A DNA stretch of 64,000 nt. It comes from Escherichia coli. GTDB taxonomy: Bacteria; Pseudomonadota; Gammaproteobacteria; Enterobacterales; Enterobacteriaceae. This document shows, piece after piece, positions 7,988-24,480 of this stretch. A program made the translations under genes and the position numbers. The first letter of the stretch is position 1, and each line of letters begins with the position of its first letter. The notes below the pieces were generated by a model that did no database searches, was not told the DNA's origin, and worked only from the letters and a program-made list of their open reading frames with translations. The stretch is taken from the NCBI RefSeq assembly GCF_003790525.1, contig NZ_CP033635.1; one strand, written 5' to 3'.

Positions 7988-8004
7988 TTAAGATTATTCC
8001 GCTG

Positions 8005-8045: not shown

Positions 8046-8132
8046 ATATATTCTTAAAAATAATTTAGCTGCTTTTCTTATTAAATAATCCCCCTACAAT
8101 CGCTGCATTAATTAAATGCAGAGGGAACGGTT

Positions 8133-8864: not shown

Positions 8865-8930
8865 CAACCTCGCTTGATGCCTCGTCCATTTAAGGCGATA
8901 ATTAGCGCAAACTTGTGTTTCGCAAATCCA

Positions 8931-8972
8931 ACCCTTCCTCGTCGGGCCTAACGACGCGGAAGGGTTTTTTTA
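8931..8972 (+). terminator. intrinsic terminator after lipoprotein ORF
   Basis: Hairpin cccttcc...ggaaggg followed by ttttttt. Confidence 0.6.
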
Positions 8973-8999
8973 TATCGACTTTGTAATAGGAGTCCATCC

Positions 9000-9920
9000 A
9001 TGAGCACCTTAGGTCATCAATACGATAACTCACTGGTTTCCAACGCCTTTGGTTTTTTACGCCTGCCGATGAACTTCCAGCCATATGACAGCGATGCTGA
9101 CTGGGTGATTACTGGCGTGCCGTTCGATATGGCCACTTCTGGTCGTGCGGGTGGTCGCCACGGTCCGGCAGCGATCCGTCAGGTTTCGACGAATCTGGCC
9201 TGGGAACACAATCGCTTCCCGTGGAATTTCGACATGCGTGAGCGCCTGAACGTCGTGGACTGCGGCGATCTGGTATATGCCTTCGGAGATGCCCGTGAGA
9301 TGAGCGAGAAGCTGCAGGCGCACGCCGAGAAGCTGCTGGCTGCCGGTAAGCGTATGCTCTCCTTCGGTGGTGACCACTTTGTTACGCTGCCGCTGCTGCG
9401 TGCTCATGCGAAGCATTTCGGTAAAATGGCGCTGGTACACTTTGACGCCCATACCGATACCTACGCTAACGGTTGTGAATTTGACCACGGCACCATGTTC
9501 TATACCGCGCCGAAAGAAGGTCTGATCGACCCGAATCATTCCGTGCAGATTGGTATTCGTACCGAGTTTGATAAAGACAACGGCTTTACCGTGCTGGACG
9601 CCTGCCAGGTGAACGATCGCAGCGTGGATGACGTTATCGCTCAGGTGAAACAGATTGTAGGTGATATGCCGGTTTACCTGACCTTTGATATCGACTGCCT
9701 GGATCCTGCTTTCGCGCCGGGAACCGGTACGCCAGTAATTGGCGGCCTGACCTCCGATCGCGCTATTAAACTGGTACGCGGCCTGAAAGATCTCAACATT
9801 GTTGGGATGGACGTAGTGGAAGTGGCTCCGGCATACGATCAGTCGGAAATCACCGCTCTGGCTGCGGCGACGCTGGCGCTGGAAATGCTGTATATTCAGG
9901 CGGCGAAAAAGGGCGAGTAA
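9000..9920 (+). CDS. speB: agmatinase (agmatine ureohydrolase)
   Basis: 306-aa [38 protein letters not shown]... matches SpeB; arginase-family metal-binding motifs (DAHTD, DIDCLD). Confidence 0.95.
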
Positions 9921-10070: not shown

Positions 10071-11633
10071 ATGGAACGCACTCTTCCCTGGAAGCCCCTT
10101 CTTTGTTTGTTATTTCTTTTATCAACTGGCTGCGATAGAGCAGAAAAACAGAAAATTGCCGCACAGCTGCAACAAGACAAAGAAGCTATTTCCTCTGTCG
10201 TCAAAAAGAGTTATCGCGCATTATGTGGCCCTGAGTTTGTCACCAGCACAGATTCGCACGATCGCCTTGCGGAAATGCAGCAAGTATTTACACCTGCTTT
10301 AATGGAGCCTGTACTGAAATACTGGCAAGAGTCACCCAAAACGTGTAAACGACGTTTCCCCAGTTATAGCGATCCTTCAGCGACCTTCGTCGAAGGCGAC
10401 AAGGCGCAGATTGGTGCTTTTTTTGGTCACCAATCTTATATTGATATTCCAATGGAGTTAATCCGGCAAGGGGATGGTAAATGGAAGATTACTGCGATTG
10501 ATTTTGCATCGTTACACGAGTTTGAAAAAAACGGTCGGGTTACTGGTGAGGTGCAGAAGCAAATAGATTTGCTTAAAAAACGCTCATTCAAGCAACATAG
10601 GGATTCCCCTGTGCTGACGAGGACCGCGCCAGAGCGGGTCAGTAAGTCCCCTTTGACATCGATGGAGCAAACAGTTACGGAGCAAGACTCTTCCTGGCTG
10701 GATGTCTTACTGACAATAGGCAAATATGCCCTTTATCTGGTAGCGATAATACTTATTCTCGCCTTGGTGGCTGTTTTGTGGATTGGTTATGGCCTGGTGT
10801 TCGCCGGACATCGCCTTTTCAAAGCATCCTGTAGAGATCCCTCAATTCAAAAAATTCCTGTGGCTGAACGTTGGGCAATGGCAGTCGGCGCGCCTTATGC
10901 CATTGCGGGTAACAATCACTGGGCGCGACGAGTCGTTAATGATGATTCCGTGGAAGCAGAGAATGATTGCAAAAATGAAGTGGAGTCCCTTGCTGACATG
11001 TGGGGCGTCTTTGATCGGGATTCGTTACTTGAGCAACTCTTAGCTTTGTTTGTAGCAGGACATCGTCCAGTTTATGAAGAACAGATCAAAAACGATAGCG
11101 AAATGCCGGATGCTGAATATCGCGCGTTCGCTCAGCAATTAGCTCAGAACGCGAAATCAAGTAGCGAAGCGAAAGAGCGTTTGTGGCAGCTACAGATGGT
11201 CAGAAAAAATCGACGTAAAATATGCGATATAGATTTTTGTGCCTGGGATATGGTGCGTTTTGTCATGCTATGTAATAGCGGGGCGCAAGTGGGATACATT
11301 ACCCAGCGTGAAATGGTCGATTTTTCGATGCTGGCAGCCAGACGCGTACAGCAACATTACAGAAGCTGGCGCGAATTGGCCGGGCATTTTTTGCTGGCCC
11401 GTTGGTACTGGAAAGCAACGGATAAACGGCACCTGATTACCCATATTCTTTTTAAGAAAGCCATTACATCTTTATTAGAAGAGCAGGGGAGTCCGTGGCG
11501 TACTTTACCCTGGGATACTCCATTACCTGAAGGAACAGAGACGGCTTTTGCCTGGGCTTGTGGCGTAAGCACTGCCGATGTCGTAGAGGTGCGATCGGAT
11601 ACACCAGATAAAGCAATCTACGAAGCGAATTGA
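10071..11633 (+). CDS. hypothetical lipoprotein/membrane protein (520 aa): lipobox N-terminal domain, one TM helix, Trp-rich C-terminal domain (possibly DUF1266-like)
   Basis: N-terminus MERTLPWKPLLCLLFLLSTGC (lipobox LSTGC); hydrophobic helix YALYLVAIILILALVAVLWIGYGLVFAG mid-protein; AT-rich coding sequence; not recalled at this position in K-12. Confidence 0.7.
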   Translation: MERTLPWKPLLCLLFLLSTGCDRAEKQKIAAQLQQDKEAISSVVKKSYRALCGPEFVTSTDSHDRLAEMQQVFTPALMEPVLKYWQESPKTCKRRFPSYSDPSATFVEGDKAQIGAFFGHQSYIDIPMELIRQGDGKWKITAIDFASLHEFEKNGRVTGEVQKQIDLLKKRSFKQHRDSPVLTRTAPERVSKSPLTSMEQTVTEQDSSWLDVLLTIGKYALYLVAIILILALVAVLWIGYGLVFAGHRLFKASCRDPSIQKIPVAERWAMAVGAPYAIAGNNHWARRVVNDDSVEAENDCKNEVESLADMWGVFDRDSLLEQLLALFVAGHRPVYEEQIKNDSEMPDAEYRAFAQQLAQNAKSSSEAKERLWQLQMVRKNRRKICDIDFCAWDMVRFVMLCNSGAQVGYITQREMVDFSMLAARRVQQHYRSWRELAGHFLLARWYWKATDKRHLITHILFKKAITSLLEEQGSPWRTLPWDTPLPEGTETAFAWACGVSTADVVEVRSDTPDKAIYEAN

Positions 11634-12754: not shown

Positions 12755-14746
12755 ATGTCCTCACGTAAAGAGCTTGCCAATGCTATTCGTGCGCTGAGCA
12801 TGGACGCAGTACAGAAAGCCAAATCCGGTCACCCGGGTGCCCCTATGGGTATGGCTGACATTGCCGAAGTCCTGTGGCGTGATTTCCTGAAACACAACCC
12901 GCAGAATCCGTCCTGGGCTGACCGTGACCGCTTCGTGCTGTCCAACGGCCACGGCTCCATGCTGATCTACAGCCTGCTGCACCTCACCGGTTACGATCTG
13001 CCGATGGAAGAACTGAAAAACTTCCGTCAACTGCATTCCAAAACGCCGGGCCACCCGGAAGTGGGCTACACCGCAGGTGTGGAAACCACTACTGGTCCGC
13101 TGGGTCAGGGTATTGCCAACGCAGTCGGTATGGCGATTGCAGAAAAAACGCTGGCGGCGCAGTTTAACCGTCCGGGCCACGACATTGTCGACCACTACAC
13201 CTACGCCTTCATGGGTGACGGCTGCATGATGGAAGGCATCTCCCACGAAGTTTGCTCTCTGGCGGGTACGCTGAAGCTGGGTAAACTGATTGCGTTCTAC
13301 GATGACAACGGTATCTCTATCGATGGTCACGTTGAAGGCTGGTTCACCGACGACACCGCAATGCGTTTCGAAGCTTACGGCTGGCACGTTATTCGCGGCA
13401 TCGACGGTCATGACGCGGCATCCATCAAACGCGCAGTAGAAGAAGCGCGCGCAGTGACTGACAAACCGTCCCTGCTGATGTGCAAAACCATCATCGGTTT
13501 CGGTTCACCGAACAAAGCCGGTACCCACGACTCCCACGGTGCGCCGCTGGGCGACGCTGAAATTGCCCTTACCCGCGAACAGCTGGGCTGGAAATATGCA
13601 CCGTTCGAAATCCCGTCTGAAATCTATGCTCAGTGGGATGCGAAAGAAGCAGGCCAGGCGAAAGAATCCGCATGGAACGAGAAATTCGCTGCTTACGCGA
13701 AAGCTTATCCGCAGGAAGCCGCTGAATTTACCCGCCGTATGAAAGGCGAAATGCCGTCTGACTTCGATGCCAAAGCGAAAGAATTCATCGCTAAACTGCA
13801 GGCTAATCCGGCGAAAATCGCCAGCCGTAAAGCGTCTCAGAATGCGATTGAAGCGTTCGGCCCGCTGTTGCCGGAATTCCTCGGCGGCTCTGCTGACCTG
13901 GCACCGTCTAACCTGACCCTGTGGTCTGGTTCTAAAGCAATCAACGAAGATGCTGCGGGTAACTACATCCACTACGGTGTTCGCGAGTTCGGTATGACCG
14001 CGATTGCTAACGGTATCTCCCTGCACGGTGGCTTCCTGCCGTACACCTCCACCTTCCTGATGTTCGTGGAATACGCACGTAACGCCGTACGTATGGCTGC
14101 GCTGATGAAACAGCGTCAGGTGATGGTTTACACCCACGACTCCATCGGTCTGGGCGAAGATGGCCCGACTCACCAGCCGGTTGAGCAGGTCGCTTCACTG
14201 CGCGTGACCCCGAACATGTCCACATGGCGTCCGTGTGACCAGGTTGAATCCGCGGTCGCGTGGAAATACGGCGTTGAGCGTCAGGACGGCCCGACTGCGC
14301 TTATCCTCTCCCGTCAGAACCTGGCGCAGCAGGAACGTACTGAAGAGCAGCTGGCAAACATCGCGCGCGGTGGTTATGTGCTGAAAGACTGTGCCGGTCA
14401 GCCGGAACTGATCTTCATCGCGACCGGTTCTGAAGTTGAACTGGCGGTTGCTGCCTACGAAAAACTGACTGCTGAAGGCGTGAAAGCGCGCGTGGTTTCC
14501 ATGCCGTCTACCGACGCGTTCGACAAGCAGGATGCGGCTTACCGTGAGTCTGTACTGCCGAAAGCGGTTACTGCACGCGTTGCGGTGGAAGCGGGTATTG
14601 CTGACTACTGGTACAAGTATGTTGGCCTGAACGGTGCTATCGTCGGCATGACCACCTTCGGTGAATCTGCTCCGGCAGAGCTGCTGTTTGAAGAGTTCGG
14701 CTTCACCGTTGACAACGTTGTTGCGAAAGCAAAAGAACTGCTGTAA
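12755..14746 (+). CDS. tktA: transketolase 1
   Basis: ORF 12725..14746; [41 protein letters not shown] matches TktA. Confidence 0.95.
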
Positions 14747-14767
14747 TCGGTAAGATACTTTGTGAGA

Positions 14768-14793
14768 AGGGCCGCGAAAGCGGCCCTTTTTTT
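14768..14793. terminator. tktA intrinsic terminator (bidirectional, abuts SPFH gene stop)
   Basis: gggccgc-gaaa-gcggccc followed by ttttttt. Confidence 0.7.
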
Positions 14794-15700
14794 ACTTAGT
14801 AGAGATAAACGGAACTGTGCTGCCGGGGATCATGGTATCGGGCAGTTTACCGTCCCAACGTTCGGCAGTGGTGAGGGCTACAAGTCCGGGATTATCCCGC
14901 AGAGCTTCACCGCGCAGGCGGATCGCTTCTGCTTCAGCCGCACTTTTTAAACGAATAGTTTCAGCCTCTGCCGCGCCTCTTACGCGAATAGTTTCCGCTT
15001 CTGCTTTAGCTGCCGCCAGTTTACTGTCTGCTTCTGCCTGGGCCTGAGTTACCGCTATTTGCGCCTGGATTTTCTCTGTTTCCAGATTTTGCTTACGCGT
15101 GGCAATGGCGACTTCTGCTTTCATTCGGTCTTCAATCGACTTTTCATAAGCGTCAGAAAAATCAATATTTTCAATCTGGACCCCGTCAATTACCACTGGC
15201 CCAACAACGGCTTTGCGCATGGCATTTTGCAGATCCTGAACCAGTTTTGTACGATCCTGTACAGCGCTGATGGCGGTATATTGGCCGAAAACGTTCTCCA
15301 GTTGAGTTGGCAACTGACGGACAATCAGACGATCTTTTAATGCTTCAATGGTGTTGTAGGTGGTATAAACCGCGCCTGCTTCTGAAGGTTTAATGTGGAA
15401 GCTGACTGATACTGTCATTTGTGCCGGTTGCTGGTCGCGGCTGTAGGCCTGTAATCCCTGATAGACCACAGCCTGATTACGCGTGGAAATTTTCTCCACG
15501 CTTTCCATAAACGGGATCTTAAAACCCAGACCCGGCTCGGCAACTTTTACGATTTTTCCGTAGCGCAGCAAAATGCCGCGTTCACCTTCATTAACGGTGT
15601 AATACGAGAGAAATGGCAGCACAACCACGGCAAGCACGCCAATGGCGATAGCAAGAGATTTTTGTGGGCGAAATGAGGTTAATGAAACAGGTGCTTTCAT
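14792..15700 (-). CDS. SPFH/band-7 (prohibitin/HflC-like) membrane protein with C-terminal coiled-coil repeats; not recalled in K-12 between tktA and cmtB
   Basis: N-terminal TM helix LAIAIGVLAVVVLPF, SPFH-like core, C-terminal AEAETIR(V/L)RG repeats and ERWDGKLP motif; SD aggaag upstream of ATG 15700. Confidence 0.7.
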   Translation of the reverse strand: MKAPVSLTSFRPQKSLAIAIGVLAVVVLPFLSYYTVNEGERGILLRYGKIVKVAEPGLGFKIPFMESVEKISTRNQAVVYQGLQAYSRDQQPAQMTVSVSFHIKPSEAGAVYTTYNTIEALKDRLIVRQLPTQLENVFGQYTAISAVQDRTKLVQDLQNAMRKAVVGPVVIDGVQIENIDFSDAYEKSIEDRMKAEVAIATRKQNLETEKIQAQIAVTQAQAEADSKLAAAKAEAETIRVRGAAEAETIRLKSAAEAEAIRLRGEALRDNPGLVALTTAERWDGKLPDTMIPGSTVPFISTK

Positions 15701-16077
15701 GACAATCTTCCTTGAGTAAAGTGTGGGAATATGTCACATGAGATGAGGAGAAAACAGCCGACAGGTGAGAATTCAGAATCTATAAAGGGGTATAGCGAAA
15801 AAACATTGCTTTAAAAAAGTATGTTTTCGGACATTCAATAAATAAATGGCGATATGCATCACAAATACAACAATAATCAAAATGTTGATTTTGTGATAAA
15901 CGTAACAAATACAAAGTTGACTTTAAAAATATCAACTTCATGTTGTTATTATTTAAGGTTTTATTATTTTTGTTCATGGGGTTTTTCTTCTCGCGTACCC
16001 AATTGCTTTCATTAAACCGCACGAGTATTTTATTTTTACCGCCGGACGGTACCCTAAAAATAAAATAAGGATAATTT

Positions 16078-16521
16078 ATGCGGCTTAGTGATTATTTTCC
16101 AGAATCATCAATCTCAGTTATACATTCAGCAAAAGATTGGCAGGAAGCTATCGATTTCTCGATGGTATCATTGCTGGATAAAAACTATATCAGCGAGAAT
16201 TACATTCAGGCAATTAAAGATTCCACCATTAACAATGGCCCTTATTATATTCTCGCACCAGGCGTGGCAATGCCTCATGCGCGACCGGAATGTGGGGCGC
16301 TTAATACCGGGATGTCTTTGACATTACTTGAACAAGGTGTTTATTTTCCGGGGAATGACGAACCTATTAAATTACTCATCGGACTCTCTGCTGCCGATGC
16401 CGATTCGCACATTGGCGCTATTCAGGCGTTAAGTGAATTACTGTGCGAAGAAGAAATACTCGAACAACTCTTAACAGCATCATCAGAAAAACAATTAGCG
16501 GACATTATCAGCCGCGGATAA
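16078..16521 (+). CDS. cmtB: PTS mannitol-type EIIA component (cryptic)
   Basis: 147-aa ORF with PTS EIIA-2 fold signature (GVAMPHA); followed by cmtA. Confidence 0.85.
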   Translation: MRLSDYFPESSISVIHSAKDWQEAIDFSMVSLLDKNYISENYIQAIKDSTINNGPYYILAPGVAMPHARPECGALNTGMSLTLLEQGVYFPGNDEPIKLLIGLSAADADSHIGAIQALSELLCEEEILEQLLTASSEKQLADIISRG

Positions 16522-16548
16522 TTACTCTCTCCTCTACAGGATAATATT

Positions 16549-17937
16549 ATGGAAAACAAGTCTGCTCGTGCAAAGGTCCAGGCTTTTGGGGGCTTTTTGA
16601 CTGCAATGGTCATCCCCAATATTGGTGCTTTTATTGCCTGGGGTTTTATTACTGCATTATTTATTCCTACTGGTTGGCTGCCTAACGAACATTTCGCCAA
16701 AATTGTCGGCCCGATGATTACCTATTTATTGCCCGTGATGATTGGTTCTACCGGTGGCCATTTAGTCGGCGGTAAACGCGGCGCGGTCATGGGCGGAATA
16801 GGTACTATTGGTGTGATCGTCGGCGCAGAGATCCCGATGTTCCTTGGCTCAATGATTATGGGGCCGCTCGGTGGGCTGGTCATAAAATATGTCGATAAGG
16901 CACTGGAAAAACGCATACCTGCTGGTTTTGAGATGGTTATCAATAACTTCTCATTAGGTATCGCGGGGATGCTCCTTTGTCTGCTGGGTTTTGAAGTGAT
17001 CGGCCCGGCGGTGTTAATTGCCAATACTTTCGTCAAAGAGTGTATTGAGGCGCTGGTACATGCGGGTTATCTGCCTCTGCTGTCAGTCATCAATGAACCG
17101 GCGAAAGTGCTTTTCCTTAATAATGCGATCGATCAGGGCGTCTATTATCCGCTGGGAATGCAACAGGCTTCGGTTAACGGTAAATCCATCTTCTTTATGG
17201 TGGCCTCTAACCCAGGTCCGGGCCTGGGGCTGCTGCTGGCGTTTACCTTGTTTGGTAAAGGGATGAGTAAACGTTCTGCGCCCGGGGCGATGATTATTCA
17301 CTTCCTCGGTGGGATCCACGAACTGTATTTCCCGTATGTGCTGATGAAGCCGCTGACCATTATTGCCATGATTGCAGGCGGTATGTCTGGCACCTGGATA
17401 TTTAACTTACTGGACGGTGGTCTGGTGGCTGGCCCAAGTCCGGGGTCTATCTTTGCGTACCTGGCACTGACGCCGAAAGGCTCGTTCCTGGCGACAATTG
17501 CTGGTGTTACGGTAGGTACCCTGGTGTCCTTTGCTATCACTTCGCTGATACTGAAGATGGAAAAAACGGTGGAAACGGAGAGCGAAGATGAGTTTGCTCA
17601 GTCAGCCAATGCGGTTAAGGCGATGAAACAAGAGGGTGCATTCTCGCTAAGCAGAGTTAAGCGTATCGCCTTTGTTTGCGATGCGGGGATGGGCTCCAGT
17701 GCGATGGGCGCGACGACCTTCCGTAAACGCCTGGAAAAAGCGGGGCTGCCAATTGAAGTAAAACATTACGCGATAGAAAACGTGCCTGCGGATGCGGATA
17801 TCGTCGTTACTCATGCCAGTCTGGAAGGGCGCGTGAAACGTGTGACGGATAAACCGCTGATATTGATTAATAACTATATTGGCGATCCAAAACTCGACAC
17901 TTTATTTAATCAATTAACCGCCGAACATAAACACTGA
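16549..17937 (+). CDS. cmtA: PTS mannitol-type EIICB component (cryptic)
   Basis: 462-aa polytopic membrane protein with C-terminal EIIB domain (CDAGMGSSAMG). Confidence 0.85.
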   Translation: MENKSARAKVQAFGGFLTAMVIPNIGAFIAWGFITALFIPTGWLPNEHFAKIVGPMITYLLPVMIGSTGGHLVGGKRGAVMGGIGTIGVIVGAEIPMFLGSMIMGPLGGLVIKYVDKALEKRIPAGFEMVINNFSLGIAGMLLCLLGFEVIGPAVLIANTFVKECIEALVHAGYLPLLSVINEPAKVLFLNNAIDQGVYYPLGMQQASVNGKSIFFMVASNPGPGLGLLLAFTLFGKGMSKRSAPGAMIIHFLGGIHELYFPYVLMKPLTIIAMIAGGMSGTWIFNLLDGGLVAGPSPGSIFAYLALTPKGSFLATIAGVTVGTLVSFAITSLILKMEKTVETESEDEFAQSANAVKAMKQEGAFSLSRVKRIAFVCDAGMGSSAMGATTFRKRLEKAGLPIEVKHYAIENVPADADIVVTHASLEGRVKRVTDKPLILINNYIGDPKLDTLFNQLTAEHKH

Positions 17938-17951
17938 TTACAGAGGTAAAA

Positions 17952-19229
17952 ATGAAAACCAAAGTTGCTGCTATTTATGGCAAGCGGGATGTCCGTCTGC
18001 GCGAATTTGAACTGCCAGAAATTACCGATAATGAACTGTTAGTGAGTGTAATTTCTGACAGCGTCTGTTTATCGACCTGGAAAGCGGCGTTGCTTGGTAG
18101 TGAACATAAACGCGTACCCGACGATTTAGAAAATCATCCGGTCATTACCGGGCATGAATGTGCCGGGGTTATTGTTGAAGTGGGTAAAAATCTCACCGAC
18201 AAATATAAAAAAGGCCAGCGTTTTGTATTGCAACCGGCGATGGGGTTACCAAGCGGATATTCAGCGGGCTACAGCTACGAATATTTTGGCGGTAACGCCA
18301 CCTATATGATTATTCCCGAGATCGCCATTAACCTGGGCTGCGTATTACCCTATCACGGCTCTTATTTTGCTGCGGCGTCGCTGGCAGAGCCTATGTGCTG
18401 CATTATTGGCGCTTATCATGCCAATTATCACACTACGCAATATGTTTATGAGCATCGCATGGGCGTCAAACCTGGCGGCAATATTGCGCTGCTGGCGTGT
18501 GCAGGTCCGATGGGCATTGGCGCTATCGATTACGCCATTAACGGCGGTATACAACCGTCGCGGGTGGTGGTGGTCGATATCGACGACAAACGGCTGGCGC
18601 AGGTAGAGAAGCTGCTGCCGGTGGAACTGGCGGCCAGTAAAGGCATTGAGCTGGTGTATGTGAATACCAAAGGGATGAGCGATCCGGTACAGATGCTGCG
18701 GGCGCTGACGGATGATGCCGGATTTGATGACGTATTTGTCTATGCAGCGGTGCCTTCAGTCGTCGAGATGGCTGATGAATTACTGGCGGAAGATGGCTGC
18801 ATGAACTTCTTTGCCGGGCCAACGGATAAAAACTTCAAAGTGCCGTTTAATTTCTACAACGTCCATTACAACAGCACGCACGTCGTCGGTACATCTGGCG
18901 GTTCAACGGACGACATGAAAGAGGCGATTACCCTTAGCGCCACGGGACAGTTACAGCCGTCGTTTATGGTGACCCATATTGGTGGCCTTGATGCGGTGCC
19001 AGAAACCGTGCTCAATCTGCCGGATATCCCAGGCGGTAAAAAACTCATTTATAACGGCGTGACCATGCCGCTCACTGCCATTGCCGATTTTGCCGAAAAA
19101 GGCAAAACCGATCCGCTGTTTAAAGAGTTGGCGCGGCTGGTTGAGGAAACGCACGGCATCTGGAATGAGCAGGCCGAGAAATATCTGCTGGCGCAATTTG
19201 GCGTTGATATCGGGGAGGCCGCGCAATGA
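17952..19229 (+). CDS. yggP: zinc-dependent alcohol/polyol dehydrogenase family protein
   Basis: 425-aa ORF MKTKVAAIYGKRDVRLREFELPEI...; MDR-family features (GHECAG). Confidence 0.8.
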   Translation: MKTKVAAIYGKRDVRLREFELPEITDNELLVSVISDSVCLSTWKAALLGSEHKRVPDDLENHPVITGHECAGVIVEVGKNLTDKYKKGQRFVLQPAMGLPSGYSAGYSYEYFGGNATYMIIPEIAINLGCVLPYHGSYFAAASLAEPMCCIIGAYHANYHTTQYVYEHRMGVKPGGNIALLACAGPMGIGAIDYAINGGIQPSRVVVVDIDDKRLAQVEKLLPVELAASKGIELVYVNTKGMSDPVQMLRALTDDAGFDDVFVYAAVPSVVEMADELLAEDGCMNFFAGPTDKNFKVPFNFYNVHYNSTHVVGTSGGSTDDMKEAITLSATGQLQPSFMVTHIGGLDAVPETVLNLPDIPGGKKLIYNGVTMPLTAIADFAEKGKTDPLFKELARLVEETHGIWNEQAEKYLLAQFGVDIGEAAQ

Positions 19230-20191
19230 TGTCCCTGGCGTGGCCATTATTTCGCGTTACGGAACAGGCAGCGTTGGCTGCCTGGCCGCAAATCGGATGT
19301 GGCGACAAAAATAAAATTGATGGCCTGGCGGTCACCGCGATGCGCCAGGCATTAAACGACGTCGCTTTTCGTGGGCGAGTGGTTATCGGCGAGGGAGAGA
19401 TTGACCATGCGCCGATGCTGTGGATTGGCGAAGAGGTGGGCAAAGGCGATGGGCCAGAAGTCGATATCGCGGTTGATCCGATTGAAGGCACCAGGATGGT
19501 GGCGATGGGGCAGAGCAATGCGCTGGCAGTCATGGCCTTCGCCCCACGAGGCAGCCTGCTACACGCTCCCGATATGTATATGAAAAAACTGGTTGTTAAT
19601 CGGCTGGCGGCGGGCGCGATTGATCTGTCTTTGCCACTGGTGGACAACCTGCGCAACGTGGCGAAAGCGTTAGGCAAACCGCTGGACAAGCTGCGCATGG
19701 TTACGCTGGATAAACCGCGCCTGAGTGCCGCGATTGAAGAAGCAACACAGCTGGGCGTGAAGGTTTTCGCTCTGCCGGATGGCGATGTCGCCGCCAGCGT
19801 GCTGACCTGCTGGCAGGATAATCCTTACGATGTGATGTACACCATCGGCGGTGCGCCAGAAGGCGTGATTTCTGCCTGTGCCGTTAAAGCATTAGGCGGG
19901 GATATGCAGGCCGAGCTGATTGACTTTTGTCAGGCTAAAGGGGATTACACGGAAAATCGGCAGATTGCAGAGCAGGAGCGCAAGCGTTGCAAGGCAATGG
20001 GCGTTGACGTTAACCGTGTGTACTCGCTCGATGAACTGGTGAGGGGGAACGATATCCTCTTTAGCGCTACGGGCGTGACGGGTGGCGAGTTGGTGAACGG
20101 TATCCAACAGACGGCGAATGGGGTGCGGACGCAGACATTACTGATCGGCGGCGCGGACCAAACGTGTAATATAATAGACTCCCTGCATTGA
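19226..20191 (+). CDS. yggF: class II fructose-1,6-bisphosphatase (GlpX-like)
   Basis: 321-aa ORF with GlpX-like motifs; start overlaps yggP stop. Confidence 0.85.
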   Translation: MMSLAWPLFRVTEQAALAAWPQIGCGDKNKIDGLAVTAMRQALNDVAFRGRVVIGEGEIDHAPMLWIGEEVGKGDGPEVDIAVDPIEGTRMVAMGQSNALAVMAFAPRGSLLHAPDMYMKKLVVNRLAAGAIDLSLPLVDNLRNVAKALGKPLDKLRMVTLDKPRLSAAIEEATQLGVKVFALPDGDVAASVLTCWQDNPYDVMYTIGGAPEGVISACAVKALGGDMQAELIDFCQAKGDYTENRQIAEQERKRCKAMGVDVNRVYSLDELVRGNDILFSATGVTGGELVNGIQQTANGVRTQTLLIGGADQTCNIIDSLH

Positions 20192-20212
20192 TGGTGATCT
20201 ATCGGAAGACGA

Positions 20213-20722
20213 ATGGCGACGCTGACAGAAGATGATGTGCTTGAGCAACTGGATGCACAGGACAATTTATTTTCATTTATGAAAACTGCGCATTCTATTT
20301 TGCTCCAGGGGATACGCCAGTTTCTGCCGTCGCTGTTTGTCGATAACGATGAAGAGATCGTCGAATATGCAGTGAAGCCGTTACTCGCCCAAAGCGGCCC
20401 GCTTGACGATATTGATGTTGCGCTGCGTTTGATTTATGCGCTGGGGAAAATGGATAAATGGCTGTACGCCGATATCACGCATTTTTCCCAGTTCTGGCAT
20501 TACCTGAACGAACAGGATGAAATGCCCGGATTTGCCGATGACATGACCTGGGATTTTATCAGCAACGTCAATAGTATAACCCGCAATGCGACGCTCTATG
20601 ACGCATTGAAAGCGATGAAGTTCGCCGATTTCGCCGTCTGGTCAGAGGCGCGTTTTAGCGGGATGGTCAAAACGGCGCTGACGCTGGCAGTAACGACCAC
20701 CTTAAAGGAATTAACGCCGTGA
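20213..20722 (+). CDS. yggD: MtlR-like regulator/fumarase E family protein
   Basis: 169-aa ORF MATLTEDDVLEQLDAQDNLFSFMKTAHSILLQG... matches YggD. Confidence 0.8.
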   Translation: MATLTEDDVLEQLDAQDNLFSFMKTAHSILLQGIRQFLPSLFVDNDEEIVEYAVKPLLAQSGPLDDIDVALRLIYALGKMDKWLYADITHFSQFWHYLNEQDEMPGFADDMTWDFISNVNSITRNATLYDALKAMKFADFAVWSEARFSGMVKTALTLAVTTTLKELTP

Positions 20723-21432
20723 AAATTGAATTAACGGTGAATGGGCTGAAGATACAGGCACAGTACCAGAACGAAGAGATTGAAAATGTACATAAACCGT
20801 TGCTGCACATGTTGGCGGCCTTACAGACGGTAAATCCGCAGCGGCGTACGGTGGTTTTTCTTTGCGCTCCGCCGGGGACGGGTAAATCTACCCTAACCAC
20901 CTTCTGGGAATATATCGCGCAACAAGACCCGGAACTGCCCGCTATTCAGACGCTACCGATGGATGGTTTTCATCATTACAATAGCTGGCTGGATGCGCAT
21001 CAATTGCGCCCCTTCAAAGGCGCACCAGAGACATTTGACGTTGCGAAACTGGCGGAAAATCTGCGCCAGGTCGTGGAAGGGGATTGTACGTGGCCGCAGT
21101 ACGATCGACAAAAGCATGATCCTGTTGAAGATGCGTTGCACGTTACCGCACCACTCGTCATCGTCGAAGGAAACTGGTTGTTGCTGGACGACGAGAAGTG
21201 GCGCCAGCTTGCGCAATTTTGTGATTTCTCGATCTTTATCAAAGCTCCCGCATCTGCGTTGCGGGAGCGTCTGGTGGGGCGCAAGCTGGCGGGAGGGTTA
21301 TCGCTGGCAGACGCAGAAGCCTTTTATGACCGTACCGACGGGCCGAATGTTCGCCGGGTGCTGGAAGAGAGTCTGCCTGCAAATTTGACCTTAATGATGA
21401 CCGCTACGGGTGAATATCGTCTGATGGATTAA
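20719..21432 (+). CDS. yggC: P-loop kinase (uridine kinase/PRK-like)
   Basis: 237-aa ORF, GTG start overlapping yggD stop; Walker A APPGTGKST. Confidence 0.8.
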   Translation: MKIELTVNGLKIQAQYQNEEIENVHKPLLHMLAALQTVNPQRRTVVFLCAPPGTGKSTLTTFWEYIAQQDPELPAIQTLPMDGFHHYNSWLDAHQLRPFKGAPETFDVAKLAENLRQVVEGDCTWPQYDRQKHDPVEDALHVTAPLVIVEGNWLLLDDEKWRQLAQFCDFSIFIKAPASALRERLVGRKLAGGLSLADAEAFYDRTDGPNVRRVLEESLPANLTLMMTATGEYRLMD

Positions 21433-22081
21433 CGTTCCTGATTACACCATCTTCCAGTCGCACCACACGAGAGAAATGACGCCGGGTAAATGCGGCGTCA
21501 TGACTGATTGCTACGACGCTCGTGCCTCGCTGGCGGCACTTTTCCAGCCAACTTTCAAACACGCTCATCCAATTTTCGTCAAAATCCCGACTCGGCTCGT
21601 CCAGCAGCAATAGCGGCGGAGAGAGTGCTTCCAGGCAGGCGACGGCGACCATCCGTCGCTGCGCACTATGCAGATCCAGCGGATGCGCGCTGGCAGTGTC
21701 TGCTAACTGACAGCATTGCAGGGCAGCATTGGTACGTTGAGTGATTTCATCCGCCGGGCATTTTTGCAGTTTCAAACCAAATGCGATCTCGTCAGCGACG
21801 GTGCTGTGAAAAAGCTGGTTTTCCGCTTCCTGAAACAGTACGCCAATCTTTGCCGCGCGCTGGCGGTTTTTCAGGTTTTTCATCGCCTGTTGTTGCAGCA
21901 TAACCGTACCGGCTGTGGGCGTAAGAAGACCTGCCATTACTCGTAACAGCGTCGATTTTCCCGCGCCATTGTCGCCGGTCAGCGCCAACCATTCACCTTG
22001 TTTGAGTTGCAGAGAAATGTCGCAAAGACAATCCGTTGCCGCGTCAGGCCAGCGATAAGTTATCTGATTTAACGTTAACAT
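21404..22081 (-). CDS. ABC-type ATPase, ECF-transporter energizing subunit with degenerate signature motif (EcfA'-like)
   Basis: Walker A GDNGAGKST, Walker B LLLLDEPSRDFD, H-loop ISHD, but signature region reads LHSAQRR instead of LSGGQ; ATG 22081 overlaps upstream ATPase stop (ATGTTAA). Confidence 0.75.
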   Translation of the reverse strand: MLTLNQITYRWPDAATDCLCDISLQLKQGEWLALTGDNGAGKSTLLRVMAGLLTPTAGTVMLQQQAMKNLKNRQRAAKIGVLFQEAENQLFHSTVADEIAFGLKLQKCPADEITQRTNAALQCCQLADTASAHPLDLHSAQRRMVAVACLEALSPPLLLLDEPSRDFDENWMSVFESWLEKCRQRGTSVVAISHDAAFTRRHFSRVVRLEDGVIRNVNPSDDIHP

Positions 22082-22752
22082 AGTGGCTGGAGCGCTCCGT
22101 TTTGCAATTGCCACGCTTGCTGGCAGTAGTTCAGGAAAGGTGTACGATGACGTTCAAAAAGAATAATCAGCGAACCACGTTCAAGCGCCCAGTGTTGTAA
22201 GCGCTGCAACAGCATTTCGCAGGCCTGCGGCGTCAGGCGGCTAAAGGCTTCATCAAGAATTAAGAGCTTTGGCTGCATCGCGATGGCGCAGGCGATGACC
22301 ACACGCTGTGTCTCTCCACCGGAGAGTGTTGCCGGGTGACGATGGCGCAACGGCTGGCACTCGGTCAGAGTCAGGGCGGCATCAATCCGCGCCATAATCT
22401 CCTCTTCAGCAAGACACAGATTTTCTGGCCCAAAGGCAACTTTTTCTTCCACGCTAAAGGTACAGCCGGAGAGCTGCAAATAGGGCGATTGCTGAACGAG
22501 CTGGATGGTGGCGGATTGTTCATTAAGCGGGATATGCCCAATGGGCGTACCGAGAAGCGTCCCCGTGCCGGTTATCTCTCCTGGCAGAAAGTCCGGATAC
22601 CAGCCCGCCATCAGCTGTGCCAGCGTACTTTTGCCACTGCCGTTGTCACCAAAGATGGCGACCATCCCCGGTTTGACATAGTGAAAGTCATAACAGAACG
22701 GAGGATGCGTTGAGTGTGTCGGGCAATAGCGAAACTGTTCTAACGTAACCAT
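22075..22752 (-). CDS. ABC-type ATPase, ECF-transporter energizing subunit (EcfA-like)
   Basis: Walker A GDNGSGKST, canonical signature LSGGETQR, Walker B LLILDEA; start could be 22758 or 22752. Confidence 0.75.
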   Translation of the reverse strand: MVTLEQFRYCPTHSTHPPFCYDFHYVKPGMVAIFGDNGSGKSTLAQLMAGWYPDFLPGEITGTGTLLGTPIGHIPLNEQSATIQLVQQSPYLQLSGCTFSVEEKVAFGPENLCLAEEEIMARIDAALTLTECQPLRHRHPATLSGGETQRVVIACAIAMQPKLLILDEAFSRLTPQACEMLLQRLQHWALERGSLIILFERHRTPFLNYCQQAWQLQNGALQPLC

Positions 22753-23447
22753 ATCCACGCTCCGAATTCAGCCAGCATTAGCAAGATCATGGCGTAACGT
22801 GCTACGCGTTGTAGGGTGCTATCGGCTGGTGCCCATAACGTAGTGCGCCTATTGTTGATTCGAAATGCCCGCATATCCAGCGCCGCACCACGGACAGCCA
22901 GATCGTTAAGCGCATTGTGTGTTAGCGGAATAATTAGCGCGGGCATCGCGCGTAAACGCTGATACCAGCCTTCATCAAGCGGCACGCCGCGGGCGCGCTG
23001 CGCTTCATGAATAATCGCTAATTGCCGTTTTAACTGCTCAACGACCAACAACGGCCCGGCGAACAGATAAGCGACGCCCGGCGGCAGGCGAGAAGCAAAC
23101 AAAGCGCGGATAAAACGTTGCACTGGGACGTACTGCATCCACAACTGCGAGGTTGAAACAATCGCCAGAATCCGCAACCAGAGCGTAATAGCATGCGTCC
23201 ACCGTTCTGGCGAGCGTGGCGTGCCGCTTAGCCATTCTATCAGCCAGCCACCGTGTACCAGCCACAGTCCAGCCCCCAGCGAGAACATCAGCCAGACGAC
23301 ATATTTTGCCCGCCGCCGCGTGGCCTTTAGCGCAATAAGGCAGAAAAAGGTCGCCGCGCTATAGACTGGCAATATTGTCTGTGTGGGCAGGATAAGCGTG
23401 GTGTAGGCCGCCAGCGCCCACAGCGTTAATGAGGTAAACGGATGCAT
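22740..23447 (-). CDS. ECF transporter transmembrane T component (CbiQ/EcfT-like)
   Basis: Polytopic 235-aa protein with Ala-Arg-Gly-type coupling motifs (EAQRARGV; LAVRGAALD); ATG directly follows stop of upstream gene. Confidence 0.65.
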   Translation of the reverse strand: MHPFTSLTLWALAAYTTLILPTQTILPVYSAATFFCLIALKATRRRAKYVVWLMFSLGAGLWLVHGGWLIEWLSGTPRSPERWTHAITLWLRILAIVSTSQLWMQYVPVQRFIRALFASRLPPGVAYLFAGPLLVVEQLKRQLAIIHEAQRARGVPLDEGWYQRLRAMPALIIPLTHNALNDLAVRGAALDMRAFRINNRRTTLWAPADSTLQRVARYAMILLMLAEFGAWIWLR

Positions 23448-24026
23448 TTAGCGCACGGCTGCCATTGCCGGAAAATGGCGCGTGGTGCGAATCGGCAGCT
23501 GACGCAGTAAAAGCCAGACAATCACCGCTGTAAGAATTTTATCGACCAGGTTTGCGCCTATCACCGTAATCGCCACCGACTCCACCAGGTTTTGCCCCAT
23601 AGAGTGCATCCAGGCAACGAACAAATCGGCTCCGCTACCGGTGACACCGCCGAACAGCGCAGTACGCAGCGGTACAGCGACGACCGTTACCGCAAGCGTA
23701 ATAATCACGCCGCTGACAACGACTTTTGGCAGGGTGCGGAACCAACCCGCTCGCGCCAGCCAACCGGCGACCAGGCCGATGACCATCGCCACGGGCGCAA
23801 ATGCGGCGGCGATCGGGTCGGTCAGCAATCCCCAGAGTAAATTGGTCAGTAAGCCGGTCAGCATCCCGATCACCGGACCAAGCAGTACCGCGCTAATAAG
23901 TGTGCCGACGGAGTCGAGAAATATAGGTAATTTGACCATGCTGGCCAGTTGCCCGCCGATCATATTGATGGCGATAGATATAACGATCAACACCAGCGCC
24001 TGACTGGAAAAGTGGCGACGCGCCAT
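23448..24026 (-). CDS. small integral membrane protein, putative ECF substrate-capture S component
   Basis: About 190 aa, 5-6 predicted TM helices, sits first in transporter gene order; start chosen at MARRHFSSQ (ORF extends to 24125). Confidence 0.55.
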   Translation of the reverse strand: MARRHFSSQALVLIVISIAINMIGGQLASMVKLPIFLDSVGTLISAVLLGPVIGMLTGLLTNLLWGLLTDPIAAAFAPVAMVIGLVAGWLARAGWFRTLPKVVVSGVIITLAVTVVAVPLRTALFGGVTGSGADLFVAWMHSMGQNLVESVAITVIGANLVDKILTAVIVWLLLRQLPIRTTRHFPAMAAVR

Positions 24027-24048
24027 AAGAAAACCTCTCTGAAAATAG

Positions 24049-24480
24049 TTAGTTAACGGGGGAAATATGCAACTCGTCGTAACCAGAAAGCGCGCAAGGC
24101 TGGCGGCTAAACGCCAGTTCCTCAAGGCAGCCGATCACCAGTTCAAGCGTGGTCCGCACGGTACAGCCGGGCATCATATGACCGCCAAGCATCGTGCCGT
24201 GTGGATCGGAAACGCAGAGATGAAGATGTTCACCACTCTGTTCCAGCGTGCCGTTCAATGCGATGACTTCGAACTTACCGCTTAGTAGGGCAGTGTTTTC
24301 TTGCCCGGCATAGCGTAAGGCGACGTCAGTCAGACTGCCGGTACAACCTGCAATCCACGCGGCGTGAAGTTGTTGTTGCTGCGCGAAGGCGCGTAATTGG
24401 GAGAGAACTTCCTGCCCGGGGAGCAGGCGCAGCGCGTAAAAACGTGCGGAGGAAGAATATGGGTAGGGCAATGTCATCAT
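24049..24480 (-). CDS. DUF296/PPC-domain-like protein (143 aa) of unknown function, first gene of the cluster
   Basis: 143-aa ORF; family assignment from recollection of PPC-domain proteins, not verified. Confidence 0.5.
   Translation of the reverse strand: MMTLPYPYSSSARFYALRLLPGQEVLSQLRAFAQQQQLHAAWIAGCTGSLTDVALRYAGQENTALLSGKFEVIALNGTLEQSGEHLHLCVSDPHGTMLGGHMMPGCTVRTTLELVIGCLEELAFSRQPCALSGYDELHISPVN

Follow-up and report, generated by a model that had tools for sequence, protein, structure and literature searches.

The cmtBA-yggPFDC cluster of Escherichia coli: a tentative PTS catabolic operon for a mannitol-like polyol

Architecture of the cluster and its upstream region

Within the window, the 64,000-nucleotide stretch of Escherichia coli DNA analyzed here, positions 16078–21432 hold cmtB, cmtA, yggP, yggF, yggD (fumE) and yggC, all on the plus strand according to the ORF listing. 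The six ORFs together fill this span exactly:

16078–16521, plus strand: cmtB, PTS EIIA of the mannitol/fructose class, 147 aa
16549–17937, plus strand: cmtA, PTS EIICB of the mannitol family, 462 aa
17952–19229, plus strand: yggP, Zn-dependent medium-chain dehydrogenase, SorE paralogue, 425 aa
19226–20191, plus strand: yggF, paralogue of class II (GlpX-type) fructose-1,6-bisphosphatase, 321 aa
20213–20722, plus strand: yggD (annotated fumE), MtlR-family protein and proposed pathway regulator, 169 aa
20719–21432, plus strand: yggC, P-loop kinase of the PRK/uridine-kinase/pantothenate-kinase group (FrcK/YggC family), 237 aa

The cluster is long known and already annotated: RefSeq lists these six genes for identical strains as well as for K-12. 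From cmtB to yggC, the intergenic distances are 27, 14, −4, 21 and −4 nt. The original prediction of six co-directional genes with two stop/start overlaps agrees with both the ORF listing and our direct reading, which places the yggP/yggF overlap in an ATGA at 19226–19229 and the yggD/yggC overlap in a GTGA at 20719–20722; the latter marks yggD and yggC, as judged from the sequence, as translationally coupled. A Shine-Dalgarno-like motif precedes each of the six starts, no terminator-like site with a convincing T-run was found between the six genes, and promoter-like and terminator-like matches inside the region do not exceed the shuffle expectation. This anatomy suggests a single transcript for all six genes. 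A chance run of ORFs is excluded, because gene order and orientation are conserved in 45 enterobacterial loci.

The following regulatory features were located upstream of cmtB and within yggP:

15848–15863, plus strand: distal CRP-like site GGCGATATGCATCACA, two mismatches to TGTGA-N6-TCACA
15892–15907, plus strand: proximal CRP-like site TGTGATAAACGTAACA, one mismatch to TGTGA-N6-TCACA
15923–15952, plus strand: sigma-70 promoter-like match (TTAAAA-18-TATTAT with TG extension), a consensus match only
16001–16077, plus strand: best-conserved upstream block, with TTGCTT (16003–16008), a 17-nt spacer, TATTTT (16026–16031) and the cmtB Shine-Dalgarno sequence
18472–18488, plus strand (sense): intragenic sigma-54 binding motif in yggP, CTGGCGGCAATATTGCG

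In the upstream alignment, the proximal CRP-like site is conserved in relatives and the distal site, which falls within a 20-nt direct repeat with a spacing of 44 bp, has a counterpart in K-12 and relatives. CRP binding at the cmtB promoter and CRP dependence have been reported, and reporter assays show the cmt promoter to be active and to depend on CRP (PMC3105977; PMC12412646). The sigma-70-like match lies ~60 bp 3′ of the proximal CRP-like site, and such matches occur in the region in numbers at chance level. The block at 16001–16077, whose conservation was assessed by alignment across Escherichia, Citrobacter, Salmonella, Klebsiella and Raoultella, is a candidate core promoter, operator or leader. 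The sigma-54 motif has one mismatch relative to site IS35, mapped in K-12 by ChIP-seq (PMC4591121).

Protein families of the transporter and enzymes

Pfam and NCBIfam matches support the gene identities and protein families originally assigned. CmtB matches PF00359 (PTS_EIIA_2) with 102 bits and NF007358 with 324 bits, and carries the AMPH motif typical of the EIIA_2 active-site His. CmtA scores 480 bits against the mannitol-specific EIIC model TIGR00851 (cut-off 468), comprises PF02378 and PF02302, and has the IIB motif FVCDAGMGSS. It shares 59–67% identity with cluster-linked orthologues in Vibrionaceae and Clostridia and 52.7% with E. coli MtlA, to which the CmtA orthologues across phyla are just 49–55% identical. 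By sequence comparison, the CmtA clade is a separate cross-phylum orthologous group, distinct from MtlA.

YggP (PF08240 and PF00107) had been described as a polyol dehydrogenase; the dehydrogenase assignment holds, while the substrate needs sharpening. Its only close characterized relative is SorE, the L-sorbose-1-phosphate reductase, which operates reductively in the sorbose pathway. YggP is 42–45% identical to SorE of genuine sorCDFBAME operons (44.8% over 98% of the length, E about 1e-112), compared with at most about 29% for the other dehydrogenases among the matches listed, and comparison with MtlD revealed no similarity. The two proteins have in common the Zn ligands C39/H68/E69/E146, GPMG at 185–188 and D209, comprising the catalytic Zn and NAD motifs. 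Because YggP is paralogous to L-sorbose-1-phosphate reductase, its substrate is most likely phosphorylated.

YggF scores 587 bits against TIGR00330 (cut-off 259) and, by visual estimate from the alignment, shares roughly 60% identity with E. coli GlpX structures; its GlpX-type family includes dual FBP/SBPases. PGAP labels it "glpX", although it is a paralogue and not GlpX itself. YggC matches NF006742 (PRK09270 P-loop "nucleoside/nucleotide kinase") with 520 bits, has the Walker A motif APPGTGKST, and aligns with the "fructokinase" of PDB 3c8u at E=8.5e-24. YggD matches PF05068 (MtlR family) with 179 bits, is essentially identical to PDB 3c8g and is related to the MtlR structures 6kcr and 3brj. 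MtlR-family proteins (structures 3c8g and 3brj) are not known to contain a classical DNA-binding domain. Two members carry published biochemical labels that the original prediction did not mention: YggF, as an FBPase, and YggD, as fumarase E. For YggF, in vitro FBPase activity is credited to Brown 2009 where that work is cited in PMC8719807 and PMC10733421. RefSeq and EcoCyc-derived annotation now call YggD fumarase E, which counts against a view of it as a regulator only.

Conservation and genomic neighbors

Nearly every complete E. coli genome (5425 of 5426) carries the cluster. All six genes are under strong purifying selection, with dN/dS of 0.02–0.16 against orthologues from E. albertii, Citrobacter, Salmonella and Klebsiella, and the operon is not decaying. 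A core of EIIA, EIICB, YggP and YggC is kept together, in differing gene orders, in Enterobacterales, Vibrionaceae and Clostridia, and every near-complete cluster of the three lineages has a YggC orthologue. Tight packing, joint conservation in three distant lineages and purifying selection bear out the view of the genes as a functional unit.

Around this core, the remaining positions vary. YggD is found in every near-complete proteobacterial locus, adjacent to yggC in all of them, and in no clostridial locus; most clostridial loci with readable flanks encode a PRD regulator instead, with YggC placed next to it, between EIIA and EIICB. Non-homologous enzymes occupy the phosphatase slot: GlpX-type YggF in Enterobacterales, a YcdX-like PHP protein in Vibrionaceae and, adjoining some clostridial clusters, a PPi-dependent (reversible) phosphofructokinase (NF010675, 483 bits). 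Rahnella, Budvicia and most Clostridia have no phosphatase gene in the cluster, so the phosphatase is not obligatory, which counts against the pathway proposed below.

Transketolase, with or without class II aldolase, belongs to or borders the operon in no fewer than five distinct arrangements. Specifically, transketolase stands within the co-directional run in L077 (PHP-tkt) and is joined there by aldolase in L088 (PHP-tkt-fba, gaps of 16–18 nt) and L046 (yggC-fbaA-tktA); L004 and L082 have a split transketolase, and four Vibrionaceae loci have tal-tkt just upstream. In Enterobacteriaceae, the cluster is flanked by tktA and epd-pgk-fbaA, and in this window the neighbor is:

12755–14746, plus strand: tkt (transketolase 1), not an operon member

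This gene has its own terminator, a hairpin with T8 at 14764–14793 that is conserved in relatives. It is possibly linked to the cluster in function; its adjacency in Enterobacteriaceae could be inherited synteny, and transketolase is missing from the vicinity of most Vibrionaceae and clostridial loci, which counts against the link. The original description of an uptake-oxidation-phosphorylation module is right as to its parts and understates this recurrent tie to a 1-phosphatase, transketolase and aldolase.

Pooled across lineages, the accessory genes, which encode a PRK-family kinase, transketolase, transaldolase, class II aldolase and either an FBP/SBPase or a PPi-PFK, amount to the FBP, SBP, S7P and E4P enzyme set, as in Calvin-cycle cbb operons and in the sedoheptulose-bisphosphate bypass of the pentose phosphate pathway. 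The likeness is an analogy of enzyme repertoire only; unlike those systems, the cmt loci have no RuBisCO, Rpe or Rpi, and join the set to a PTS and a polyol-phosphate dehydrogenase.

A tentative pathway and its alternatives

Our full-text literature search found no substrate assignment for cmtBA-yggPFDC, in line with the original statement that the substrate is undefined. We tentatively favor, at a little under even confidence, a self-contained, CRP-activated PTS catabolic operon in which a mannitol-like polyol is used through a ketose 1-phosphate route linked to transketolase and aldolase. The proposed chemistry differs from that of the classical mtl, srl and gat operons. On the basis of family membership, CmtB and CmtA would import the polyol and phosphorylate its terminal carbon; YggP, by homology to SorE, would oxidize the carbon beside the phosphorylated one to give a 2-ketose 1-phosphate. 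YggC might then phosphorylate the free terminal hydroxyl, yielding an FBP-like or SBP-like ketose 1,ω-bisphosphate. Which hydroxyl YggC phosphorylates is a guess; action at C1 would set up a futile cycle with the operon's 1-phosphatase. Either a class II aldolase could then cleave the bisphosphate, or YggF, in its presumed pathway role, could remove the C1 phosphate, and the resulting ketose ω-phosphate would feed transketolase. YggD would serve the pathway as its own MtlR-type regulator and would not be a dedicated fumarase.

A PTS-derived ketose 1-phosphate that is phosphorylated at its other end to a 1,6-bisphosphate is also the intermediate of fruBKA (fructose PTS to F1P, then FruK to FBP) and of the tagatose-1-phosphate kinase pathways. 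Unlike in those systems, the ketose 1-phosphate would come from oxidation of a polyol phosphate and not directly from the PTS.

Reporter data weigh against a polyol substrate: among 198 Biolog carbon sources, no polyol induced PcmtA-gfp, and the strongest inducers were uridine and other nucleosides, an effect common to 13 other sugar-transporter promoters (PMC12412646). Under the favored pathway, silence of the operon in laboratory media would reflect the absence there of its specific inducer, and hence of its substrate. Plain mannitol is probably not the substrate, which may be a heptitol such as volemitol, used via sedoheptulose 1,7-bisphosphate.

An unlikely alternative keeps a catabolic pathway and makes YggC and YggD a regulatory pair controlling the transporter or promoter. 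YggP alone would then deliver a normal glycolytic or pentose-phosphate intermediate and YggF would do no more than provide fructose-6-P, as GlpX does in glpFKX, where a class II (GlpX-type) FBPase likewise sits inside a catabolic operon and carbon enters below fructose-6-P, although substrate class and transporter differ. The coupling and constant adjacency of yggD and yggC favor such a pair, as does the missing DNA-binding domain of MtlR-family proteins. The best-studied YggC relative, FrcK of S. meliloti, is not the fructokinase; its loss alters transport and induction, and its authors suggested a transporter-modulating role (PMC10433430). We counted this case against a catalytic YggC step. 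The frcBCAK operon likewise attaches such a kinase to fructose/polyol-related uptake, but has an ABC transporter in place of a PTS and no YggP-like enzyme. Against a regulatory pair, Clostridia retain YggC without YggD and with a PRD regulator already on hand, the characterized relatives PRK, uridine kinase and pantothenate kinase all phosphorylate small molecules, and a ketose 1-phosphate from a SorE-type enzyme requires a further kinase for use.

It is rather improbable that the cluster is a redundant, poorly expressed second mannitol PTS, whose mannitol-1-P is handled like that of MtlA to fructose-6-P with the ygg genes as loose helpers. The TIGR00851 match, the identity of CmtA to MtlA, an MtlR-family protein and CRP control are all mtlADR-like, as would be the proposed NAD-dependent oxidation of a polyol phosphate, and in bovine gut contents cmtB expression rises together with that of other sugar systems (PMC6199705). 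Unlike in mtlADR, the cmt EIIA is encoded separately, at only 27.6% identity to the MtlA IIA domain, and a kinase and class II FBPase are added. Against redundancy, the Zn-dependent MDR enzyme YggP is unrelated to MtlD and is instead a SorE paralogue, and CmtA stands apart from MtlA and is conserved across phyla beside YggP and YggC. E. coli also keeps mtlADR, and in Rahnella an MtlA-like and MtlR-like pair lies next to the cluster; pure redundancy is unlikely with dN/dS held below 0.1 in three lineages. The PcmtA-gfp screen included mannitol, with no report of induction by it (PMC12412646).

Very improbable, in our assessment, is operation in the SorE direction, with CmtBA importing a ketose as ketose 1-phosphate, YggP reducing it to a polyol phosphate and a dehydrogenase encoded elsewhere forming fructose-6-P. 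The closest characterized homologue is reductive, fructose and mannitol PTSs belong to related families, and one review tabulates CmtA with "fructose and mannose" (PMC10305011). In the Klebsiella/Lactobacillus sor operon (sorCDFBAME, L-sorbose), SorE acts at the carbon beside the phosphate, converting a ketose 1-phosphate and a hexitol phosphate into each other. That operon has a mannose-family EIIABCD, the SDR SorD and the regulator SorC, the latter two absent from the cmt cluster, and no kinase or phosphatase, and its presumed reaction direction is opposite. Against a reductive cmt pathway, the EIIC is of the mannitol and not the fructose type, a second, SorD-like SDR dehydrogenase was found in none of the loci examined, and the scheme would leave no role for the conserved kinase or for the association with phosphatase, transketolase and aldolase.

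That the six genes are an evolutionary relic heading for loss, without a current joint function, is already disfavored and hardly credible: at GC 0.38–0.41, cmtB and the promoter region share the AT richness of silenced loci, the cluster has no known laboratory phenotype and public assemblies contain truncated or fused gene calls, but near-universal presence in E. coli, six intact ORFs in the window and K-12, low dN/dS and an active, CRP-dependent promoter stand against it.

New relative to the existing annotation are the cross-lineage core, the kinship of YggP with SorE, the variable phosphatase slot and the association with transketolase and aldolase. If the favored pathway is true, YggC, a P-loop PRK/PanK-like and not a PfkB ribokinase-family protein, would be a non-homologous replacement of the PfkB-family kinase.

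Anatomy, retention and surroundings of the gene cluster

The ORF listing resolves the following six genes:

16078–16521, + strand, cmtB
16549–17937, + strand, cmtA
17952–19229, + strand, yggP
19226–20191, + strand, yggF
20213–20722, + strand, yggD
20719–21432, + strand, yggC

These coordinates are identical to those of the original prediction, which described six co-directional genes with overlapping stop and start codons, and all of its protein-family calls were borne out by domain searches, so that the observation is confirmed. Read directly from the sequence, the yggP/yggF overlap is ATGA (19226–19229) and the yggD/yggC overlap is GTGA (20719–20722), the other intergenic gaps measure 27, 14 and 21 nt, and a Shine-Dalgarno-like motif lies ahead of each of the six starts. 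The same genes are present in the RefSeq annotation and in K-12 MG1655 (b2934–b2928), and a 6.5-kb query around the region matched 5425 of 5426 complete E. coli genomes. Compared with orthologues from E. albertii to Buttiauxella, all six genes gave dN/dS values of 0.02–0.16, a sign of strong purifying selection; "cryptic" thus denotes a lack of induction under laboratory conditions and not decay.

The cluster has the anatomy of an operon: its genes are co-directional, separated by short or negative gaps, conserved in order and free of an internal terminator. A promoter/terminator scan between the genes from cmtB to yggC returned no convincing terminator and no above-chance promoter, with counts at or below the shuffle expectation. 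From this arrangement we infer that cmtB to yggC are co-transcribed as one mRNA. Within yggP, positions 18472–18488 (+) differ by one mismatch from the sigma-54 ChIP-seq site IS35 of K-12 (PMC4591121); this motif reads in the sense direction, 744 bp ahead of yggF, and leaves room for internal initiation in the unit.

YggC is only 87.7% identical to the K-12 protein, compared with 97.6–99.6% for the other five products, and across Escherichia loci the most divergent genes are likewise those at either end of the operon, cmtB and yggC. This pattern points to recombination breakpoints associated with the variable islands on both sides. Rare fused gene calls occur in public assemblies (CmtA-YggP of 671 aa; YggD-YggC of 406 aa, in two clusters; proteins P0020, P0123 and P0129) and probably reflect frameshifts or read-through across junctions that are short or overlap.

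Upstream, tkt is followed by a strong hairpin and T8 terminator (14764–14793), which the alignment shows to be kept in relatives lacking the intervening gene. Co-transcription of tktA with cmtB was rejected on account of this terminator, here and in those relatives, and the transketolase is therefore a neighbour in the window, not an operon member. The intervening gene, 14792–15700 (-), encodes a 302-aa SPFH/prohibitin (Band 7) protein and shares the terminator, which is bidirectional, with tkt; K-12 lacks it, with just 313 bp between tktA and cmtB, and 1830 of 5426 complete E. coli genomes have it. Between yggC and epd lies an ECF-transporter island, 21404–24480 (-), comprising two ABC ATPases, a T component, an S component and a PPC-domain DNA-binding protein, again missing in K-12 and found in 3328 of the 5426 genomes. 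The first ATPase gene of the island runs towards yggC and shares 29 bp with its 3′ end, and there is therefore no terminator between the two units. Farther upstream, a DUF1266 gene annotated at 10071–11633 (+) between speB and loiP is not at that position in K-12.

The 377-bp region upstream of cmtB is AT-rich (GC 0.38) and contains three elements, the first two identified by motif match and the third by alignment of enterobacterial relatives:

15848–15863, distal CRP-like site
15892–15907, proximal CRP-like site
16001–16077, most conserved upstream block, directly before the start codon, including TTGCTT-17-TATTTT

Both CRP-like sites, spaced 44 bp, are kept in K-12, E. albertii, Citrobacter, Salmonella, Klebsiella and Raoultella, and the cmtB promoter is bound by CRP and CRP-dependent (PMC3105977, PMC12412646). 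When 198 Biolog compounds were applied to a PcmtA-gfp fusion, uridine and other nucleosides gave the strongest signals, uridine also switched on 13 other sugar-transporter promoters, and mannitol, one of the compounds tried, was not reported as an inducer (PMC12412646). A 20-nt direct repeat, GATA..C.T.ACAAATACAA, occurs at 15851–15870 and 15895–15914 with the same 44-bp spacing; it contains the right halves of both CRP-like sites, each followed by AATACAA(C/A), which weakly resembles the CytR octamer. Nucleoside induction and tandem CRP-like sites raised the idea of CytR control, which we set aside because the octamer is matched weakly and K-12 conserves it poorly; CytR-type control of the cmt promoter is conceivable. 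An Rfam search found no riboswitch or leader, the sole match being sub-threshold and on the tkt terminator.

Protein families and relation to known operons

CmtA contains PF02378 and PF02302 and scores 480 bits against TIGR00851 (cut-off 468) and 593 bits against NF011663 (cut-off 589), while CmtB matches PF00359 and NF007358 (PTS EIIA_2). The motifs FVCDAGMGSS (IIB, CmtA) and VAMPHARPE (IIA, CmtB) are present in the translations. With EIIC, IIB and a separate EIIA_2, the pair is a PTS Enzyme II of the mannitol subfamily of the fructose-mannitol family. Full-text literature searches found no transport data for CmtA or CmtB, and the solved structures of the CmtA family comprise the IIB domain and not the EIIC pocket.

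YggP is a Zn-dependent medium-chain dehydrogenase. BLASTP gave no match between it and E. coli MtlD, and Pfam detected no MtlD-family domain in any of the six proteins; lacking MtlD, the cluster is not of the mtlADR type. In tblastn searches of plasmid records, YggP was 44.8% identical over 98% of its length (E about 1e-112) to SorE of a Klebsiella sorCDFBAME operon and 42% identical to SorE of a Lactiplantibacillus sorbose operon. Among the matches listed, SorE proteins were the sole close relatives outside the YggP clade, the other dehydrogenases being at most about 29% identical. Alignment of YggP and SorE proteins showed C39, H68, E69 and E146 (Zn ligands), GPMG 185–188 and D209 to be invariant, and loop 95–112 to differ between the two clades. 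Full-length similarity, including a C-terminal extension of roughly 60 residues, together with the Zn ligands and the NAD(P) fold, identifies YggP as SorE-type. The Asp after β2 is the same in both, which bears on NAD versus NADP preference and gives no clue to reaction direction. No Man-family PTS, SorD or SorC was found near yggP in any locus examined, which separates the cluster from sorbose operons, where the SorE substrates are L-sorbose-1-P and D-glucitol-6-P.

Class II fructose-1,6-bisphosphatases (FBPases; GlpX family) hydrolyse the 1-phosphate of fructose-1,6-bisphosphate (FBP) and, in some members, of sedoheptulose-1,7-bisphosphate (SBP). YggF belongs to this family by full-length match above the curated cut-off (TIGR00330, 587 bits, cut-off 259; PF03320, 406 bits; E=2e-112 to GlpX structures), and two later papers credit it with in vitro FBPase activity (Brown et al, 2009, as cited in PMC8719807, PMC10733421). 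YggD matches the MtlR family, which has an all-helical fold, over its full length (PF05068, 179 bits, residues 5–167); PDB entry 3c8g is essentially the same protein, followed by the MtlR structures 6kcr (3.6e-12) and 3brj (2.2e-8). It belongs to neither known fumarase family (class I Fe-S; class II FumC/aspartase fold), MtlR being its sole Pfam match; the name fumE reportedly goes back to one metabolomics assignment, made by Sévin and colleagues in 2017. In the annotation of this locus, PGAP gives yggF the symbol of its paralogue, glpX, and labels the MtlR-family protein fumarase E, labels that are likely to mislead automated pathway reconstruction.

YggC scores 520 bits against NF006742 (cut-off 402; PRK09270 group), with weaker matches to PanK and Udk models, and carries the Walker A motif GTGKST. 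Its structural matches are 3c8u (8.5e-24) and PanK structures (about 1e-9), placing it in the FrcK/YggC subfamily of the phosphoribulokinase/uridine kinase/pantothenate kinase P-loop family, while the Vibrionaceae and clostridial copies match the sister equivalog NF006745. A homologue search with YggC returned only close enterobacterial relatives and no new distant contexts. The family was predicted in 2011 to be a sugar/polyol kinase (PMC3223725), and by 2023 no substrate had yet been assigned to FrcK, its rhizobial relative (PMC10433430).

The cluster thus resembles several known systems in part. It shares transporter and regulator families with mtlADR but has no MtlD; it shares the dehydrogenase family with the sor operon but has no Man-type PTS, SorD or SorC; it follows the fruBKA logic from ketose 1-phosphate to bisphosphate, although its kinase is not of the PfkB family; and, like glpFKX, it has a class II FBPase embedded in it. 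Being a member of none of the four, it is most aptly regarded as a variant of the PTS polyol-catabolic operon.

A conserved core with accessory enzymes that vary by lineage

Starting from a YggP orthologue alignment, we scanned one genome per species and then carried out tblastn and ORF-cluster censuses supplemented by single-protein look-ups, covering 80 genome loci and a handful of metagenomic contigs. The core of EIIA, EIICB, YggP and YggC forms a block in three distant groups, Enterobacterales, Vibrionaceae and Clostridia. Enterobacterales have the order cmtB-cmtA-yggP-yggF-yggD-yggC (45 near-complete loci, 27 of them with tktA directly upstream), and Rahnella and Budvicia keep this order minus yggF. 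In Vibrionaceae the genes run EIIA-EIICB-YggP-MtlR-like-YggC, after which comes a YcdX-like PHP-domain protein (NF006702, 357 bits) instead of the GlpX-type enzyme. Clostridia have EIIA-YggC-EIICB-YggP without the MtlR-like gene, and most of their loci adjoin a PRD-type activator of about 680 aa; a PPi-dependent phosphofructokinase (PPi-PFK; NF010675, 483 bits) also adjoins the cluster in loci L003/L060 and L080. An apparent unknown 300-aa protein in L003 proved to be the C-terminal half of the PRD regulator, split in that assembly.

Cluster-linked CmtA orthologues are 59–67% identical across phyla, as against 49–55% to E. coli MtlA; judged by these identities, they are a separate orthologous group that co-exists with mtlADR. 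In the Rahnella loci L049–L053, the cmt-type cluster is followed a few kb further on, at about 13950–17800, by an MtlR-like gene and a second MtlA-like EII that shares 52% identity with CmtA, so these genomes carry both systems side by side.

Transketolase accompanies the cluster in at least five different arrangements:

L077, Vibrio mediterranei, PHP-tkt
L088, 265-kb metagenomic scaffold, PHP-tkt-fba with gaps of 16–18 nt
L046, Rahnella laticis, yggC-fbaA-tktA, aldolase confirmed
L004 and L082, Bacillota, split transketolase
Four Vibrionaceae loci without epd-pgk-fba nearby, tal-tkt immediately upstream

In Enterobacteriaceae the cluster is placed between tktA and epd-pgk-fbaA, where the tktA adjacency may be inherited synteny. 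In L082 (Anaerotalea alkaliphila), ptsI (PTS Enzyme I, 640 bits; 7619–9439) lies between YggP and the split transketolase and belongs to their co-directional run. An aldolase and PfkB kinase adjoining the cluster in L067 and L089 were discarded as a link, being part of a separate galactitol operon (EIIC-GAT, GatD-like, GatY-like). Neither Rpe nor Rpi was found in any of the 80 genome loci or the metagenomic contigs.

Proposed pathway, candidate substrates and significance

Taking family memberships, conservation, CRP dependence and the FBPase activity as given, we infer all substrates and the regiochemistry as follows. CmtBA would turn a polyol into polyol-1-P, which YggP would turn into a 2-ketose 1-phosphate. 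MtlD, SrlD and GatD make ketose 6-phosphates. SorE, an L-sorbose-1-phosphate reductase, acts on the carbon next to the phosphate and turns a ketose 1-phosphate and a hexitol phosphate into one another; with SorE proteins as the close relatives listed for YggP outside its clade, the most parsimonious product of YggP would be a ketose 1-phosphate, not a ketose 6-phosphate. A ketose 1-phosphate needs a second phosphorylation at the other end before use, the logic of FruK and tagatose-1-phosphate kinase. YggC, the sole kinase in the cluster and present in every lineage, would convert it into a ketose-1,ω-bisphosphate; phosphoribulokinase, uridine kinase and pantothenate kinase all phosphorylate primary hydroxyls. 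An aldolase could then cleave the bisphosphate, or YggF, the PHP protein or PPi-PFK could remove its 1-phosphate and deliver a ketose-ω-phosphate to transketolase. The slot after YggC is occupied by three non-homologous enzymes, a GlpX-type YggF, a PHP phosphoesterase and a reversible PPi-PFK, each of them able to take off or exchange the phosphate at C1 of a ketose bisphosphate. As an MtlR-type protein, YggD would regulate the pathway: every near-complete proteobacterial locus has it, and the PRD activator usually takes its place in Clostridia, a pattern that fits a regulator better than a fumarase.

The original prediction described the substrate as undefined, and this stands: full-text literature searches found no substrate assignment for cmtBA-yggPFDC. 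The lineage-specific accessory genes (GlpX, PHP, PPi-PFK, transketolase, class II aldolase and transaldolase) form a set handling SBP, sedoheptulose-7-P (S7P) and erythrose-4-P (E4P). Because the accessory enzymes all act on FBP, SBP, S7P or E4P, the most interesting surviving candidate, albeit a speculative one that we consider rather improbable, is a C7 sugar alcohol with the manno configuration, for which volemitol (D-glycero-D-manno-heptitol) serves as prototype. CmtBA would then yield heptitol-1-P, YggP sedoheptulose-1-P and YggC SBP. Class II aldolase could split SBP into DHAP and E4P, or alternatively YggF, the PHP protein or PPi-PFK could convert it to S7P, and transketolase and transaldolase would recombine the pieces. 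If true, a heptitol substrate would explain the accessory-gene set without Rpe or Rpi, the position of the enterobacterial cluster between tktA and epd-pgk-fbaA, and the missing phenotype, as standard carbon-source panels contain no heptitols. Our literature search found no bacterial heptitol pathway.

We rank a hexitol variant of the route second and pentitols lower. Plain mannitol is unlikely, since the route would duplicate mtlAD and match it in energy terms, the cmt cluster and mtlADR are retained together in genomes, and mannitol was tried on PcmtA-gfp without being reported as an inducer (PMC12412646). D-arabitol and other pentitols rank low, as neither Rpe nor Rpi was seen with the cluster. 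In addition, no activity towards pentulose bisphosphates is known for GlpX, PPi-PFK or aldolase, and the classical phenotype of E. coli K-12 is arabitol-negative, both of which count against pentitols.

The genes are long known and do not in themselves amount to a discovery; what the analysis offers is a concrete, testable mechanism proposal for a near-universal E. coli gene set and for an uncharacterised kinase family. All six genes belong to the part of the near-universal E. coli repertoire to which no physiological role has yet been given, and no YggC/FrcK family kinase has been characterised in any organism. Our comparisons reduce the problem to a short list of testable reactions (polyol-1-P 2-dehydrogenase, ketose-1-P ω-kinase and 1-phosphatase) and a short list of candidate substrates. 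Deletion of cmtA reportedly raises the tobramycin MIC and CmtAB overexpression reportedly increases aminoglycoside uptake (PMC12412646), on which the proposal, if true, would have a bearing. It would also correct the "mannitol-specific" label of CmtAB and probably the "fumarase E" label of YggD. A heptitol substrate would make this the first bacterial heptitol pathway and YggC the first kinase of the FrcK/YggC family to be characterised. More generally, the pathway would be a new point of entry to the FBP/SBP and transketolase node, and would identify a nutrient common to gut Enterobacteriaceae, marine vibrios and gut Clostridia.
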